From Promethearchaeota archaeon (GTDB taxonomy: Archaea; Asgardarchaeota; Lokiarchaeia; Sigyniarchaeales; SOKP01), in assembly GCA_019058365.1 (NCBI GenBank), contig JAHPZE010000032.1, forward strand, positions 1-46,131: 46,131 nucleotides of DNA, written 5' to 3'. Both the position numbers and the translations under genes were made by a program. Under the pieces are notes generated by a model, which saw nothing but the letters and a program-made list of their open reading frames with translations, was not told the origin of the DNA and did not search any database. The number at the start of each line of letters is the position of its first letter. The first letter of the stretch is position 1. Shown here in pieces: positions 21,153 through 33,913 of the stretch.

Positions 21153-22361
21153 TTATTTTTGATAACTATTCCATTTTTTTTCAAGATTAGGATCTTGTAA
21201 GGCCTCCATGATATATTTTGCATAATCTTCTCCCTTTGCTCCTGTATCTCTTCCAGTTACTTTTAACTTTTTCTCATAAATTGCACATATATCTAATGCC
21301 ATTTCTAGTCTTTTAGCTTTTTCTACAAACCCAATGTGATTCAAAAGCATTGCTGACGCTTTTATTATACTTGTTGGATCTGCATATTTAATTCTACCAG
21401 TTTCAACCATCCTTGGAGCAGTACCATGTATCGCTTCAAACATTGCATATCGTTTTCCAATATTAGCACTACCTGCAGTGCCAACAGATCCCTGAATCTG
21501 AGCAGCTTCATCAGTAATGATATCGCCATATAGATTTGGTGCTACAAATACTTTGAACTCTGATTGACGTGCTGGGTCAATCAATTTAGCTGCCATGATA
21601 TCAATATACCAATCATCAAATTTCACTTCTGGATATTCATTTTTTGCAATCTCTTTTGCCATGTTTAAGTACATTCCATCTGTAGTTTTAACTACATTAG
21701 CCTTAGTCACTAAGGAAACTCTATTAACTCCTGTCTTTTTAGCATAATCAAAAGCTAATCTTAAGATGCGATCTGTTCCCTGTTTAGTGTGTACGCAAAA
21801 ATCAAAAGCTAGATCATCAGTAACTCTAATCCCTTTTGATCCCAATACATAAGCGCCTTCAGTATTTTCTCTGAAAAATATCCAATCAATTTGTTGTTCA
21901 GGAATTTTTACTGGACGAACATTTGCAAATAAGTCTAATTCTCTTCGCATGGAAACATTAGCACTTTCGAGATTTGGCCATTTCCCAGAAGCTAAATCAG
22001 CTGAACTTGGCGTGTGAGTAGGGCCTTTTAAAATAACATGGCACTTCTTTAATTGTTCTAAACTTTCATCAGGGATTGCTTTCATTAAATTTGCTCTATT
22101 TTCAATAGTAAGCCCTTCAATATCTCTAAATTCAACCTTTCCATTCTCAATTTCCTCTTTTAAAAGAAAATTAAGAATTTCTTCTGCGTGTTTTGTGATT
22201 TCTGGACCTATACCATCACCCCCAGCAACTCCTATGATAATAGGCTTTAATGTTGTATAGTCTATCCAATCTGCACCTTTTTTCAAATTCTCAATTCTAT
22301 TTAGTTGTTCTCTTACAAGTTTTTCAAAATGATTTTTAGCATTTTCGATTACATCATTCAT
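21153..22361 (-). CDS. icd: Isocitrate dehydrogenase (isocitrate/isopropylmalate dehydrogenase family)
   Basis: GDGIGPEI, SANVSMRR (SxNxxxR isocitrate-type), ANVRP, RENTEGAY, TKANV, NLYGDIITD, EAIHGTAP; near aclAB. Confidence 0.8.
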   Translation of the reverse strand: MNDVIENAKNHFEKLVREQLNRIENLKKGADWIDYTTLKPIIIGVAGGDGIGPEITKHAEEILNFLLKEEIENGKVEFRDIEGLTIENRANLMKAIPDESLEQLKKCHVILKGPTHTPSSADLASGKWPNLESANVSMRRELDLFANVRPVKIPEQQIDWIFFRENTEGAYVLGSKGIRVTDDLAFDFCVHTKQGTDRILRLAFDYAKKTGVNRVSLVTKANVVKTTDGMYLNMAKEIAKNEYPEVKFDDWYIDIMAAKLIDPARQSEFKVFVAPNLYGDIITDEAAQIQGSVGTAGSANIGKRYAMFEAIHGTAPRMVETGRIKYADPTSIIKASAMLLNHIGFVEKAKRLEMALDICAIYEKKLKVTGRDTGAKGEDYAKYIMEALQDPNLEKKWNSYQK

Positions 22362-22563: not shown

Positions 22564-24291
22564 TTATAATCCTTCATATAATAGAATTAAACCAGTGACC
22601 ATAATTATTATTGCTATTCCTGGAAATATAGCACATCCAAAATATATGTACATAAATATGTTCCCTTCATTAGCGAGTTGCCCTAATGTAACAATTTTTT
22701 GATCTGAGAATCCTAAAAAGTTGATGGATTCAAAAAGTATAATTGCAATACCAACCATTAATGGAACATATTTTACAAATGATTTAAAAACATTGATTTC
22801 CAAAGAAGAAGCATTAGCAATTATCCTTGTAAAACTCGGAATAAGAAAGATCCCGATAAATATCATTGTAATTATAAAATTCGTTCCAAAAATCGAAGAT
22901 ATTAAAAAAATCAGAATCACACTAGGAATTATATATATAATTAATGTAAATCCTGTAAATAAATTTTTACCCCTTTCACTTAATTTCGTGGCAATTAGCC
23001 CAAACAACAATCCTCCTAAGATCCCTATAACAACAGCTCCAATTCCAACCAAGATAGAGAATGAAACGCCCCAAATAATCTGACTAAGCATATCACGCCC
23101 AAGTTTTCCTTGTCCTAAAAGATGATCAGAAGATGGTGGTTGCCATGCTCCTGGAAAAGAACCTTTTATTTCTGTGAGAGAATATTGGCTTAGAATTTCA
23201 GGAAACAATGCTACAATAATAAAAAAACCAGTAATGATTAAACCTATGATTGTAAGGGGAGATTTCCATTTTAAATGTGGATAAAATTCATCAAAAGATC
23301 CAGGAGATATAAACTGTTCCGGTTCACGTGTACTAAAAATGATATTTGAAATAGCTAAGGTAATAGCAAAAAAAATTATTATCATATTCAAAAAAGCAAT
23401 TATAACGAAAAAATCTCCAAGAGATATTGCGTTAAGAAAATAGGTACCAAAACCGCCTAGATTAAAAGTAGTTTCAACTAAAATAATTGAAGTAAAAATA
23501 AAACCAAAATGATAACCAATAGTTGCAGTATTTGAAATTAGAGATCTAGTAGTAGTAATAGCATTGCTTTCTATCGTAGAACGATATTGTCTTATTACAA
23601 GTGCAGTAATGATAAGTGTTAAACATAATTGTGGTAATATAAAATGCAGAAGAATATCTCCAGCCAAAACAAGATTTCCATCAATTAAAGAATCTATAAT
23701 GAGAAATCCCGTGATTAACGACGGATCTGTATATGAAGTTGACTTATAACCCGATACTGGCAATGCATTCAAAACATAACCAAACAACAATTGAAAGATC
23801 ATTGCTAATACAAACGCAGGGATTGCAATAGCAATTGCTACGTATATATTAATATATCTCCCAATCTTATGATCTTCAAATTTTCTTGAAAGTCTACCAA
23901 GAATAATGCCTACTACTAATCCTATTATTAAAGGAATAAAAATAATTTCAATAGTTCTAGGAATCGCAATTCGAAGCATTTCAGTGACTGGCATCCCTCT
24001 TGATATTGCGATGGAAACTCCCCAATCACCTATAAAGAGATTACCTAAGTATCTAAAAAATTGAAGAATAATAGGTTGATCAAACCCCAATGTATGTAAA
24101 GCATCTAGATATTGTTCTTGAGTGGGATTATGAATGCCTAAAGAAAAAAGATATACCATCACGGGATCATTCGGTAAAAAACGAACAATAATAAAATTTA
24201 TGAAAACACCAATGATAAATATTAAAAATGAGATAATAACAGCAAAAATTATATTTTTATGAACTTCCTTTAATTCAACCAGAACAATCAC
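22564..24291 (-). CDS. Fused DppB-DppC peptide ABC permease-like protein lacking both EAA loops
   Basis: DppB motifs (LPNDP, LGFDQP, GDWGVS, TGFLIIDSLI, HFILP, VETTF) followed by DppC motifs (PPSSDHLLG...GRDML..IIWG, FLGF, FPGIAI). Confidence 0.88.
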   Translation of the reverse strand: MIVLVELKEVHKNIIFAVIISFLIFIIGVFINFIIVRFLPNDPVMVYLFSLGIHNPTQEQYLDALHTLGFDQPIILQFFRYLGNLFIGDWGVSIAISRGMPVTEMLRIAIPRTIEIIFIPLIIGLVVGIILGRLSRKFEDHKIGRYINIYVAIAIAIPAFVLAMIFQLLFGYVLNALPVSGYKSTSYTDPSLITGFLIIDSLIDGNLVLAGDILLHFILPQLCLTLIITALVIRQYRSTIESNAITTTRSLISNTATIGYHFGFIFTSIILVETTFNLGGFGTYFLNAISLGDFFVIIAFLNMIIIFFAITLAISNIIFSTREPEQFISPGSFDEFYPHLKWKSPLTIIGLIITGFFIIVALFPEILSQYSLTEIKGSFPGAWQPPSSDHLLGQGKLGRDMLSQIIWGVSFSILVGIGAVVIGILGGLLFGLIATKLSERGKNLFTGFTLIIYIIPSVILIFLISSIFGTNFIITMIFIGIFLIPSFTRIIANASSLEINVFKSFVKYVPLMVGIAIILFESINFLGFSDQKIVTLGQLANEGNIFMYIYFGCAIFPGIAIIIMVTGLILLYEGL

Positions 24292-24484
24292 ACCCTCTTA
24301 AACTATTAATCTAACAATTAAAAGTTAATTTAAAAATAAGATCAAACTACTATATAAAGATTATTCAGAACAAATTCAAAGAGATTTTATTAATGTCAAT
24401 AAAATCTTTATGCTTCTAATTTTAATATTTAAGATTTTGATTTGTGATTTTAATGATACTTTTAATTCTTACTCAACTAGATTT

Positions 24485-26320
24485 CTATTCTGAAAACAAA
24501 ATTTCATCCCAAGGTTGCCTATATAAACCAGCACGTTGGCGTTTTTGATCAAAAATGTGCCCCATCATTCCTATCGAACGGCCAAGTACAAATAATCCAT
24601 TCAATGCTTCACTGTATATAACATCTTCAATTTCTTCTTGTGTAAAATTCAAATTTTCTAATAAATCTAAAAATGTAATCCCTATACACCCATCAACATT
24701 TAATATCAGATTATTCCTTTTAGATGTGGTTAATTTCTCAACCTCTAGAGCAAAATCCATATGAGGGTGCTTTTTGAAATTTTTAAATACAAATTCTTTA
24801 AGTAGGACAACTCTTACATCTGGATTTTGAACTGATTTAATTCGATGTCCTATTCCTGGAATATTAATTTTCACAACATCTTTCATATATTTTATAAACT
24901 CAGTTGGCTTCATTTCATTTTGTAAAGCTTCTCTTACATATTTTGCTGCATCTGATATTGCACCCCCGAATCTTGGACCTATAGTTAAAATCCCGCTAGC
25001 TAAAGCTGACATAAGATCTTTTCCAGCACGAGCAGTAATAATTGCATTATGTGCTCCTGATACTGCTGGACCGTGATCTGCTGTTAATTTAATTACCATT
25101 TCAATAAATTGTTGAGCAAATTCCGGTAACTCTCGTTTAAACCATAAAAGTCCAATAACATAGCCGATTGATCGATTATCCCTAATGATATCATCTAATC
25201 CAACTCCTGCGAATGTAGGAACATCTCCTCTATCATCACTAATAGTTACGACAACATCAGATGGTCTTCTAACTAATCCTAATCTTATAGCTTCATTGAA
25301 ATCAGTGGGAATTCTAGGAGGTTCAATATCTTTAGCAGGTTTAAGTTTCCCTTCTCGTACTAGATTTTCATAAGTTTTTTTAATCAATTTATCAAAATCT
25401 TCATAAGATTCAGGAACAAACGCTCCTGCTTTCTTAAGAGCTTGATTTTTAGCTTCTGCTGTCTCTCTTGAAGTACCTGCCATAGCACCAGCATGTCCAA
25501 ATTGTAAACCTTGAGGTAAAATCTTAGCTGCTGTACCAGTGACCCATATAACGAGTGGTTTAGTAATCTTGGTATTTTTTAATGCATCTACAATCTCATA
25601 TTCCTCAGTTCCACCAATCTCTCCAAGACAAACTAACATTTTGATATTTGGATTTGATTCATAACGTAAAAGATGTTCAATTAATCTAGAACCAGGATAA
25701 CGATCTCCTCCAATTGCGATGGACTCATAAACTCCATCTGTATTTTGTGCGATCATAAAGTTCATTTCATTACTCAGACCACCTGACTTAGAAACAAAAC
25801 CTACAGAACCGGGGCGGTATAACTTTGAAAGGATGATATTTTCGAGTGTTCCTGCTGTATTAGCAATCTTAAATGCCCCAGCTTTTATACCACCTACAGT
25901 TGCTGGCCCTATTATGATCTTGTTTTTCTCATTAGCGATTTTAATCAAAAATCTGCTTTGTCTTTCTGGCATGCCTTCTGCAATAATAACAACTACTCGA
26001 ATTGTACCTGTTTCAAGGGCTTCTTTACTTGTATCATAAGCGGATCGGAAAGAGGCAAAATTTATCATTACATCAGCATTAGGATGCTTTTTAACTGCCA
26101 TTTCAAGTGTTTTATAAACTGGGATGACAACTTCTTTACTTCCCCAAAAAGCTTTATGATATGCAACTGCAGCTTCTTGAGTTGTTTGAATCATTGCAGC
26201 GACTGAAGGTTTTTTTCGTCGACAGACATAATCAAAATCAAGCATTCTTTGAACGGGCGCAGCTTGAAGGCCATATATTATGGATTGGGTATCTTCATTA
26301 AATAACTCATAACTTTCCAA
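24485..26320 (-). CDS. aclA: ATP-citrate lyase alpha subunit
   Basis: QRMLDFDY, INFASFRSA, IIAEG, GPATVGG, QFGHAGA phospho-His, ADHGPAVSGAHN, GIGHRIKS, LILNVDG; GAGGTGA before the TTG. Confidence 0.97.
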   Translation of the reverse strand: MESYELFNEDTQSIIYGLQAAPVQRMLDFDYVCRRKKPSVAAMIQTTQEAAVAYHKAFWGSKEVVIPVYKTLEMAVKKHPNADVMINFASFRSAYDTSKEALETGTIRVVVIIAEGMPERQSRFLIKIANEKNKIIIGPATVGGIKAGAFKIANTAGTLENIILSKLYRPGSVGFVSKSGGLSNEMNFMIAQNTDGVYESIAIGGDRYPGSRLIEHLLRYESNPNIKMLVCLGEIGGTEEYEIVDALKNTKITKPLVIWVTGTAAKILPQGLQFGHAGAMAGTSRETAEAKNQALKKAGAFVPESYEDFDKLIKKTYENLVREGKLKPAKDIEPPRIPTDFNEAIRLGLVRRPSDVVVTISDDRGDVPTFAGVGLDDIIRDNRSIGYVIGLLWFKRELPEFAQQFIEMVIKLTADHGPAVSGAHNAIITARAGKDLMSALASGILTIGPRFGGAISDAAKYVREALQNEMKPTEFIKYMKDVVKINIPGIGHRIKSVQNPDVRVVLLKEFVFKNFKKHPHMDFALEVEKLTTSKRNNLILNVDGCIGITFLDLLENLNFTQEEIEDVIYSEALNGLFVLGRSIGMMGHIFDQKRQRAGLYRQPWDEILFSE

Positions 26321-26323
26321 TTA

Positions 26324-27613
26324 TTATTCACCTCTCATTTTTTCAATCATTCGAGATACTGGACGCGTCATACTACTATACCGATCGTAAATATCAATAG
26401 GAATCCCTGTTTCTTCTCCAACTTTTTTCATTAACTCTAATCCTTGTTTTTCATTAGGACCGCCTCTGCGAACTAAGATTTTCACATTTGCTTTCTTTAA
26501 TTTATTAACTGAATTTTTTATCGCACTAACAATACCTCCAAAAGTAGCCTTCACGTCAGTAAAATTTGCAATTCCTCCTCCAATTATTAAATATTTTTCT
26601 CTCCCTTTAGGATCTGGTTTTTCTGTAATGATGTCAATTACAGTTTGAGCATAAATTTCAGTATGTTCTTGGGAAGGATTACCTGAATATTCTCCATAAT
26701 TACCCAATTCTTCTGAAAAACCAAGATCTGCTATAGTATCAGTATAAATGACACTTGCTCCACCCCCAGCTACCATCGTCCAGACACGACCTTCTCGATT
26801 TAAGATAGTCAATTTAAGTGAAGCTCCTGTTTTTTCATCAAGTTCTTTAATTTTAATTTCTTCAGCACTCATTTTCTGACCAAATCCCGCTGGAAATTCA
26901 ATAGGATGCTCCGGATTGCCCCAAGTATCAGCATGCAAAAACGCAGCAGTATCATCTAATCGAGCTTTTACATCTAAAGGAACAATCTTTTTATCTTCAG
27001 TAATTGCAAATGGATTTATTTCAAGAAATGTAAAATCCTGGTCTACATATACTTGATATAATCCTTTTATAAATGGAATTAAAGATGTCTTTAAATCGCC
27101 TAAATTAGGTAATTTGTTCTCTAAATCAAAAGTATTTATATCTGTACTAATTGGAACTTTAATGTGGGTAACTTTATCCCAATTTTCCTCAATAAAAATA
27201 CCTCCTTCAAAACTAAAGTGAATGACATCATTATCTCTCTCTGAGGTGATGGATACATAATATTCTTTTTCATGTGGTATAAAAGGTTCAATTAACAATC
27301 GATTTAATTCCCCTTTGACATTACCGATTAGAAATTCTTTATTTAAATTCTCTTTACAGAATTTTTTTACTTGGTTAAGATCAGCATCTAATAATAGAAG
27401 TTTGGCTTTACCTCGTTTTCCAAATAGTTGATCAGGTTTAACTACTACTTTTTCAGATTTAATCCAAGGATTTTCATCTGCTAACTTATCTAAATTTGTA
27501 GTACTTTCAATAACAGCTAATTTATTATGGTAGTTAAAATTTGGATAATATTTTGGTAATGTTTTTGCTAAATGTTTTTTAGCATCATATTCAAAGATAT
27601 TTTTCTGTGCCAA
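26324..27613 (-). CDS. aclB: ATP-citrate lyase beta subunit
   Basis: VVKPDQLFGKRGK, LEINP, ASLKLTILN, MVAGGGASV, NYGEYSG, GGGIANFTDV, RRGGPN. Confidence 0.97.
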   Translation of the reverse strand: MAQKNIFEYDAKKHLAKTLPKYYPNFNYHNKLAVIESTTNLDKLADENPWIKSEKVVVKPDQLFGKRGKAKLLLLDADLNQVKKFCKENLNKEFLIGNVKGELNRLLIEPFIPHEKEYYVSITSERDNDVIHFSFEGGIFIEENWDKVTHIKVPISTDINTFDLENKLPNLGDLKTSLIPFIKGLYQVYVDQDFTFLEINPFAITEDKKIVPLDVKARLDDTAAFLHADTWGNPEHPIEFPAGFGQKMSAEEIKIKELDEKTGASLKLTILNREGRVWTMVAGGGASVIYTDTIADLGFSEELGNYGEYSGNPSQEHTEIYAQTVIDIITEKPDPKGREKYLIIGGGIANFTDVKATFGGIVSAIKNSVNKLKKANVKILVRRGGPNEKQGLELMKKVGEETGIPIDIYDRYSSMTRPVSRMIEKMRGE

Positions 27614-32533: not shown

Positions 32534-33913
32534 TTGAGTTTTAGAATTGAAAAAGATGTTTTAGGAGAGATAGAAGTTCCTAGTAATGTTTATTGGGGAA
32601 TAAATACCCAACGAGCAATTAAGAACTTTCAAATAAGTGGAAAGATATTCCCTCATATATTTATTAAATCATTGGCTCAGTTAAAGAAAGCTTGTTTATT
32701 CGCAAATTTAGATTTAGAGATGATTGAAAAGCAGATTGCTAATGCTATTCTTCAAGCTGTTAATGAAATTCTTGAAGAAGATAAACATCTTGATCAGTTT
32801 CCTATAGATATTTTTCAAACTGGTTCTGGAACTCAAACAAATATGAATATGAATGAAGTTTTAGCAAATCGAGCAAATGAAATTTTAGGATACCCAATGG
32901 GTAAAAAACATCCAGTACACCCAAATGATCATGTAAATAAAAGTCAATCTTCTAATGATGTGATCCCAAGTACAATGCATATCTCTACTTTACATATGAT
33001 CCTAAAATTATTTCCTATTTTAGAAAGATTAAAAGAACATTTAGATAAAAAAATTAAAGAGTTTAAAGATATTGTTAAAGTAGGAAGAACACATTTACAG
33101 GATGCTGTTCCGATACCATTATCTTTAGAGTTTGAAGTCTATAAGAAACAAATCGAAATCCAAATAGAGAGATTAGGAAATACTTGTAATGAATTATATT
33201 ATATTCCAATTGGGGGAACAGCAGTAGGGACTGGAATAAATGCACATAAAAATTTTGCCAAGCTTACAGTTTCTCACCTCTCGAAAATCACAAATTTACC
33301 TTTTAAAGTTAATCCCGTGAAAGCGGAAGGAATTGCTTCACATAATACAATAGTTAAGGCTAGTAGTAATTTACGTTTGTTAGCTTTATCATTATTAAAG
33401 ATGGCAAATGACATCCGCTGGATGGGGAGTGGACCACGAGTGGGATTATCTGAATTAAAATTGCCTCAAAATGAACCTGGATCATCAATAATGCCGGGGA
33501 AAATAAACCCCAGTCAATCCGAAGCATTAATTCAGGTTTGTCTTCAGGTTATTGGAAATGATTCCGTAGTTTCATTTGGAGAAGCATATGGTAGTATATT
33601 AGATTTGAACATATGTAAACCTGTTATGATTATAAACTTACTTGAATCAATTGAAATAATAATTGGAGGGATTAATTCATTTATCGACAATTGTTTATCT
33701 GGATTAGAAGCTAATACTGCCCAAATCAATGAAAATTTAGAGCAAATGCTTATGGTTGTTACAAATTTAATACCCATTATTGGATATGATAAATGTTCCG
33801 AGATAGCACAGCGAGCTTATAAAGAAGGAAAAAGTTGCAAAACAATTATTAAAGAGATGGGGTTAAAAATTGATAACCTCGATGAGTTATTAGATCCCAG
33901 AAAAATGGTTTAA
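32534..33913 (+). CDS. fumC: Fumarate hydratase class II
   Basis: QTGSGTQTNMN, HPNDHVN.SQSSND, GRTHLQDA, GSSIMPGKINP. Confidence 0.93.
   Translation: MSFRIEKDVLGEIEVPSNVYWGINTQRAIKNFQISGKIFPHIFIKSLAQLKKACLFANLDLEMIEKQIANAILQAVNEILEEDKHLDQFPIDIFQTGSGTQTNMNMNEVLANRANEILGYPMGKKHPVHPNDHVNKSQSSNDVIPSTMHISTLHMILKLFPILERLKEHLDKKIKEFKDIVKVGRTHLQDAVPIPLSLEFEVYKKQIEIQIERLGNTCNELYYIPIGGTAVGTGINAHKNFAKLTVSHLSKITNLPFKVNPVKAEGIASHNTIVKASSNLRLLALSLLKMANDIRWMGSGPRVGLSELKLPQNEPGSSIMPGKINPSQSEALIQVCLQVIGNDSVVSFGEAYGSILDLNICKPVMIINLLESIEIIIGGINSFIDNCLSGLEANTAQINENLEQMLMVVTNLIPIIGYDKCSEIAQRAYKEGKSCKTIIKEMGLKIDNLDELLDPRKMV

Follow-up and report, generated by a model that had tools for sequence, protein, structure and literature searches.

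Whether a type I ABC permease that has lost the elements on which its ATPases dock can still serve a cell, and in what capacity, is the question raised by a 575-aa open reading frame in the window, the 46,131-nucleotide stretch of Promethearchaeota contig JAHPZE010000032.1 analyzed here (Table 1). The names of its homologs assign the genome to the Lokiarchaeia. Coupling helices are regarded as essential to type I ABC importers, whose gate needs binding protein and ATP jointly. The frame is single and unbroken with a GTG start, and the preliminary description of it as an intact fusion of DppB and DppC halves agrees with the ORF call and with NCBIfam and PDB matches. Matches to DppB/OppB models and to E. 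coli DppB span residues 10-324, and those to DppC/OppC span residues 333-575. The NCBIfam scores (E values of 3e-20 for DppB and 1e-16 for DppC) all fall far below curated cut-offs, and Pfam PF00528 reaches 23.6 bits against a cut-off of 26.4; sequence homology to both DppB and DppC (TC 3.A.1.5) is present. The TATA-like box suggests a putative promoter belonging to the ORF itself, and a sigma-70 promoter scan, a model type unsuited to archaea, gave chance-level hits only.

Table 1. Features of the fused permease locus and its neighbors, in window coordinates.
Feature	Position	Strand	Details and basis
Fused DppB-DppC permease ORF, both EAA coupling helices missing	22564..24291	-	575 aa; homology and model
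DppB-like half, residues 10-321, six membrane helices	23329..24264	-	profile and PDB matches, superposition
Scoop motif, a pair of short helices (residues 41-70)	24082..24171	-	model helices 43-50 and 58-68; PMC12136057
B-half TM4-TM5 cytoplasmic link, shortened (21 residues including the EAA helix gone)	23533..23571	-	
Inter-half linker, residues 322-344, in place of the DppB DPR tail	23260..23328	-	low model confidence
DppC-like half, residues 345-575, six membrane helices, terminus EGL without DPR tail	22567..23259	-	
C-half TM4-TM5 cytoplasmic link, shortened (25 residues including the EAA helix gone)	22777..22821	-	
Conserved family-specific stretch (K503, Y508, P510, L511) where C-half TM5 begins on the inner side, unlike intact DppC	22759..22785	-	
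TATA-like box, 60 nt upstream of the ORF start	24351..24358	-	spotted by eye
Two ATP-citrate-lyase-like genes, upstream	24485..27613	-	CoA-ligase alpha-like match; lyase assignment inferred
Isocitrate/isopropylmalate dehydrogenase family gene, downstream	21153..22361	-	

The TM4-TM5 segment measures 58 aa in the B half against 79 aa in the same genome's intact DppB (21 lost), and 44 aa in the C half against 69 aa in its intact DppC (25 lost); the missing residues are exactly the two EAA coupling helices. The reduced EAA segments named in the preliminary description were computed at 23592-23533 (RQYRS...SLI) and 22827-22780 (RIIAN...FKS), and its observation that the conserved C-terminal tail is absent holds, the protein stopping at EGL without DPR; the DPR that should follow the B half is missing as well. 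It had also held that the outer loops contacting the binding protein are kept. These are indeed retained, however GDWGVS and PPSSDHLLG are generic DppB/DppC motifs, and the demonstrated DppA contact is the scoop (PMC12136057), also retained in the ORF.

As first described, no ATPase or binding-protein gene is adjacent, the neighbors being an ATP-citrate-lyase-like pair and an isocitrate/isopropylmalate-dehydrogenase-family gene. The citrate-lyase-like arrangement recurs in two genomes (G102 and G071), and related copies otherwise occupy many unrelated loci; a functional tie to citrate lyase or isocitrate dehydrogenase was rejected, the site being common to only a few orthologs. At 32534-33913 in the window, 8 kb from this block, lies what we take from its sequence to be a class II fumarase-like gene. 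Other contigs of the genome carry two complete dpp operons whose permeases have intact EAA motifs, and all four of its DppD/F-type ATPases sit within them. Two more family-5 binding proteins are orphans with extra extracellular C-terminal domains (C11:13714-17328 and C12:34198-36723); the first matches other genomes' operon DppA at 39-44% against 30% for that of its own genome. Fusion is common in this genome and EAA loss is not, because three other fused two-domain permeases (C16:332790-334892, C43:44797-46473 and C43:51917-54025) keep EAA-like motifs beside ATPases.

An AlphaFold2 model of the ORF, built from a 66-row alignment, shows a complete DppBC fold (pLDDT 87.9, pTM 0.90). Helices 207-245 and 251-276, and likewise 472-496 and 501-525, are joined by loops of 4-5 residues, and no coupling helix was found at either TM4-TM5 site. 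The B half superposes on E. coli DppB (8z1v_A) and M. tuberculosis OppB (8j5q_B) with VIA Z 22.8-22.9 and rmsd 3.5-3.7 over 273-284 residues, and the C half on 8z1w_B with VIA Z 22.0 and rmsd 3.3 over 238 residues. A Foldseek match (E 1e-7) and these superpositions show that each half has the membrane fold of type I importers, and an S-component fold is absent, the model being DppBC type I throughout. Resting, outward-closed chains are the closest structural state of each half. In E. coli DppBCDF, coupling helices hold the TMD-NBD contacts to DppD and DppF, the DppB scoop touches DppA, and the outer gate opens solely when DppA and ATP act together (PMC12136057). By alignment, the ORF's outer-gate residues F160, L271, F525 and L526 correspond to E. 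coli F164, L280, F239 and L240 and are conserved among its EAA-less relatives; scoop and outer gate, the features for binding-protein docking, are both present. The inner face of these proteins differs: residues of intact permeases (the YxxxR, D144/R148 and DxxMRxxD columns) are likewise lost, and new family-specific residues stand at C-half TM5 (K/R in 62, P in 61 and L in 61 of 66 copies). Conserved charged residues R237, E/D273, D293 and D400 are inherited from intact permeases, the sole new one being K503 on the inner surface, and the family alignment holds no new conserved membrane carboxylate hinting at ion coupling. When the two halves, trimmed, were modeled as a complex with the binding-protein domain of the C11 orphan, the score was 0.01, a value given no weight in either direction.

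The double loss is a family trait. Scores against a short profile spanning the C-half junction divide EAA-less copies (at least 37 bits) from intact permeases (at most 28 bits), and with this profile 76 copies were found in 52 of 161 Lokiarchaeia genomes, at 1-5 per genome and in three genera; about half of the genomes in the same genera are without the family. Both EAA helices are lost in all 96 full-length copies examined, none of which carries an EAA motif and one of which has a DPR tail. TM4-TM5 lengths are bimodal, with 78-80 and 67-71 aa in intact permeases and 52-62 and 44-52 aa in the family (56-58 and 44-47 residues in most copies), and since the two sets of ranges do not overlap the short segments are not due to chance. 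At about 45 loci examined no DppD/F gene lies beside a copy, and a family-5 binding protein is near one (L073). The copies are scattered over many unrelated sites, frequently in tandem, and those only 28-40% identical still keep open frames. A second family, in which the motif-less loops measure 56-58 and 58-67 residues, includes the cultured Ca. Lokiarchaeum ossiferum (NEF87_001678) and Ca. Harpocratesius repetitus, and a model of NEF87_001678 has no coupling helix either. Outside the Lokiarchaeia, the four strong phylum matches examined are ordinary two-gene operons, and the ESM Atlas yielded two clusters only, one of ordinary fused bacterial permeases and one of DppB. A literature search, in which subscription journals were thinly covered, found no description of EAA-less type I permeases or of this family; the consulted part of an Asgard transporter survey lists PepT systems and leaves the family unmentioned (PMC7997004).

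In a tree computed with the deleted columns excluded, all Lokiarchaeia EAA-less copies form one clade (support 100) nested among Lokiarchaeia dppBC, on branches about three times longer than those of intact permeases. Fused intact DppBC forms are not its sister group, and intact-loop fused permeases are scattered elsewhere in the tree. Sequences from GC-rich archaea make up a separate group that lost the motifs independently; these are orphan fused DppBC with degenerate coupling loops (L130:5001-6929, L162:3476-5347 and L163:3854-5797), including Methanobacteriota archaeon EA_17 and EA_23. A separate origin of each copy from its resident operon was rejected for the clean-deletion clade, in which helix identity is 0.5-0.9 to the family against 0.25-0.43 to the genome's own permease; the rejection is less certain for long-branched members of family f3, and the tree carries a long-branch warning.

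Several variants were observed among the copies. Half-length, DppB-only derivatives without an adjoining DppC half have also lost the EAA loop (L136:1123-1998 and L149:1138-1986), and other copies are re-split into separate B and C genes with the EAA loops still missing (L057:8528-10375, L058:7956-11909 and L074:9878-11675). Copies of 756-829 aa have gained an N-terminal membrane domain of about 175 aa (L059:7629-9995, L070:2384-4663 and L074:5288-7777), related to small stand-alone genes beside other copies and to three ORFs in the source genome. One subclade (L057, L058, L068, L070-L074 and L080-L082) is found together with glnA, NAD-synthetase-like genes, a pair of ABC exporter genes and an ammonium transporter, a context that hints at nitrogen supply. 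Another (L085, L087-L089, L120, L123 and L125) has a fixed site near what is presumably, as recognized from sequence, an ESCRT-III and Vps4-type AAA ATPase-like cluster.

Among the closest orthologs of the ORF, dN/dS is 0.18-0.25 (bootstrap 0.13-0.31); across the family it is 0.18-0.50, against 0.06-0.58 in intact permeases and 0.03-0.14 in flanking enzymes. With its frame intact and under purifying selection, the ORF is not a pseudogene. Among close orthologs, dN is 0.16-0.19 in the outer loops, 0.07 in the helices and about 0.05 in the inner loops, the slowest-evolving part, and the scoop is far more variable in the family (dN/dS 0.24-3.5) than in intact DppB (0.05-0.44). The preliminary description had looked to homologs for a conserved double deletion with dN/dS below 1, and this is what they show, with a bootstrap upper bound of about 0.3. 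Neither neutral evolution nor a retained docking helix, the two outcomes it had set against its proposal, was found: dN/dS stands at ~0.2, and the model holds no such helix. It had further argued from two clean in-frame deletions to selection for a role that needs no ATPase. As that argument would have it, both losses are conserved and under purifying selection, however they are one inherited family trait and not two events in this gene. The conserved double loss, purifying selection and lack of a coupling helix in the model therefore point to selection for an ATPase-free role.

The EAA-less family is a mosaic, with a membrane core of single origin and five outer loops that repeatedly group with the intact DppB/DppC of their own genome: in several genomes, the scoop and other outer loops resemble the genome's intact DppB, and the helices resemble fellow EAA-less copies. 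By label shuffles within genus across 35-37 genomes, own-genome identity is 0.457 vs 0.415 for the B outer loops (z 6.3) and 0.480 vs 0.432 for the C outer loops (z 7.0), with a slight own-genome excess in the membrane helices (z 2.0 for B and 2.7 for C). A tree of helix columns recovers the family as one clade (support 99). The outer-loop tree requires 10 changes, at least 7 of them forced by strong branches, and pairs copies with their own genome's permease in four genomes (G014, G016, G087 and G145); monophyly on outer loops is rejected, with a log-likelihood 347 lower and p-AU 0.0004. In the best cases, both halves of a copy have loops that resemble those of DppB and DppC from a single operon, at 60-77% identity, and in cultured Ca. 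Lokiarchaeum ossiferum the outer loops of NEF87_001678 match two of its own dppB genes. These results cover related genomes, one to three intact operons sampled from each, loop borders taken from the model, and quick tree searches.

The codon identity of matched loops is mostly 30-62%, and because this is near the 44% baseline the match is held at the protein level. Recent gene conversion as its sole cause was rejected, codon identity being near baseline and long near-identical DNA tracts with same-genome permeases being absent; an older exchange of loop segments, followed by selection holding the match, is likely. Lone intact dppB genes without dppC (L062:10865-11884, L078:4844-5863 and L186:1498-2526), two of which adjoin EAA-less copies, are possible donors for such exchange. 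Since the outer loops track resident DppB/DppC, selection at the family level probably keeps the outer face adapted to the binding protein of the same genome, and the simplest ligand common to a copy and the intact importer would be the binding protein of the operon. Sequence comparison adds evidence, at the level of the family, that the binding-protein face matters, with the 575-aa ORF among the non-matching copies: its outer loops correspond to neither operon of the genome (0.39, with a better fit to 79% of the permeases of congeners), and those of its orthologs in G101 and G102 are likewise unmatched to their own operons. In G102, one binding protein only was detected.

We tentatively favor a peptide gate fed by a binding protein and working without ATP, a reading given somewhat less than an even chance. 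An ancestral Lokiarchaeia Dpp/Opp dppB-dppC pair would have fused and lost both coupling helices once, and the copy would have been kept and multiplied. The product folds in the model as a whole DppBC pore, on which normal docking of DppD/F is impossible, and its outer scoop and loops would receive a family-5 binding protein encoded elsewhere in the genome. On docking of the loaded binding protein, a peptide or like solute would pass slowly down its gradient without ATP, the gradient being maintained by peptidases inside the cell. That DppA is the outer partner, that no ATPase is bound, that solute crosses and that the gradient is the only drive are steps that we infer. The kept outer-gate residues and matched loops count for the ATP-free gate, as do its precedents and an excess of binding proteins, 554 family-5 domains vs about 165 DppD/F pairs in 96 genomes. 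Against it count the loop mismatch of the ORF itself, the closed-state model, the E. coli gate that needs DppA and ATP, the patchy presence of the family and the lack of a new membrane carboxylate for ion coupling. Copy number also correlates only weakly with binding-protein number (rho 0.25-0.28) and not significantly once genome size and ATPases are controlled. It is possible, if rather doubtful, that the family constitutes a new transporter class, a motor-less type I ABC pore that takes peptides from DppA without ATP and has its five outer loops repeatedly re-fitted, through exchange of segments and subsequent selection, to the resident importer.

The outer-loop match would fit equally well a dock that does not transport, binding the same DppA with its pore shut in order to tether, buffer or compete, or to sense the loaded state and signal to a membrane or cytoplasmic partner in the manner of a transceptor. 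A model closest to the closed resting state agrees with such a dock, as do the slow evolution of the short inner loops, the family-specific K503, P510 and L511, and the subclade beside glnA and amt; S-components are known transporter folds reused as receptors (PMC11109136). However, a cytoplasmic output domain occurs in none of the 96 copies, the longest (756-829 aa) adding just a membrane domain, and no regulator neighbor is conserved across subclades, so that a signaling partner would have to act in trans; on balance a dock of this kind is somewhat unlikely. Even with a shut pore, a motor-less copy kept in register with a real importer would be an undescribed dock, sensor or decoy.

The remodeled inner face could instead receive a new energizer, another ATPase or an ion-driven motor. 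The genome does hold 45 ABC-ATPase-like ORFs, and both the residues conserved specifically in the family where TM5 meets the inner face and the low dN of the inner loops would suit a docking site, however these loops are only 4-5 residues long in the model, no partner gene recurs at the loci, and the two ABC exporters near one subclade come with fused ATPases of their own; this explanation is improbable. Slightly more so is a decoy that imitates the outer face of the importer and absorbs viruses, parasites or Trojan-horse peptides entering via DppBC or loaded DppA. Conservation of the membrane core and gate residues exceeds the needs of a surface decoy, no defence-island context was seen at the loci examined and no agent binding this outer face is known, set against the mimicry of the resident permease, the fast evolution of the scoop, and the patchy presence, tandem copies and many loci of the family. 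Supply of DppD/F in trans from intact operons, via a shrunken interface, is very improbable: at least one DppD/F match exists in 50 of 51 carrier genomes of the two main genera, however both helices and their E. coli contact residues are gone with no replacement helix in the models, and G058 (92% complete) has one copy and four binding-protein domains with no DppD/F or intact dppBC detected. That the ORF is a decaying, functionless dppBC duplicate, as patchy distribution, the roughly threefold longer branches and some split or half-length copies might suggest, is hardly credible and is refuted by dN/dS of 0.18-0.23 (95% bounds under 0.31), open frames kept at 28-40% identity and deletion lengths constant throughout.

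The ATP-free gate is best placed by comparison with known systems. The family derives from Lokiarchaeia dppBC, kin of TC 3.A.1.5, and shares with DppB/DppC and OppB/OppC (E. coli DppABCDF, 8z1v/8z1y; M. tuberculosis DppABCD, 8wd9, and OppABCD, 8j5q) its homology, 6+6 helix fold, scoop and outer-gate residues. Unlike these, it is single-chain, lacks EAA helices, DPR tails and other inner residues, never occurs in an ATPase operon, and has outer loops and helices of mosaic ancestry. Because EAA helices and an ATPase operon, two defining traits, are missing, the protein should not be classed among the subunits of ABC importers. Fused type I permeases (FbpB in 9j4r; fused DppBC P0122 and P0127; those on C16 and C43 of the source genome) also join two halves in one chain, however they keep both EAA loops, and fusion by itself is ordinary.

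Precedents for function without ATP would come from other folds. The solitary S-components BtuM and BioY, for which facilitated diffusion has been proposed, are membrane parts of ABC systems that occur and work without an ATPase module, however their fold is unrelated to the type I pore of the EAA-less protein and they bind substrate themselves, with no binding protein (PMC6072759). The membrane domains of MsbA and LmrA move solute without their ATPase, however these are engineered, proton-coupled and of the exporter (type IV) fold, and no ion-coupling residue is evident in the EAA-less protein (PMC4979069). By analogy, the EAA-less protein would work like BtuM and BioY or like the cut-down MsbA and LmrA. 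A natural, selected, multi-copy family offers a ready test of whether a motor-less pore functions, and of the interconversion of ATP-driven pumps with passive carriers or receptors. Binding-protein-fed uptake without ATP is established in TRAP and TTT transporters, which are driven by ion gradients and differ from the EAA-less protein in membrane fold, binding-protein family and drive.

The hosts are peptide-fermenting, energy-starved Asgard archaea, and the protein ranked first in a cultured relative belongs to the family-5 binding proteins (PMC11284389). The mosaic pattern points to a candidate partner; for NEF87_001678 of Ca. Lokiarchaeum ossiferum, with its match to two dppB genes, the predicted partner is the DppA of the operons near 0.90 and 1.98 Mb of CP104013.

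Further observations concern the intact importers and binding proteins of these genomes. In a subset of Lokiarchaeia dpp operons, all of one type, DppD and DppF bear long N-terminal membrane domains, and the ATPases measure 436-1009 aa (L002:4047-7334, which is C8 of the source genome; L101-L103 and L113-L119). A long hydrophobic insertion lies within the ATPase domain of the source genome's C35 DppF (L001:10223-11641). Most examined Lokiarchaeia dpp operons place a membrane protein of 150-200 aa, with no Pfam match, between dppA and dppB (L001:6288-6779 and L002:9501-10037). Giant ORFs of 2100-3600 aa with tandem family-5 binding-protein domains are present in several genomes (G114:C144 38660-42067, G063:C96, G143:C163 and G079:C11).
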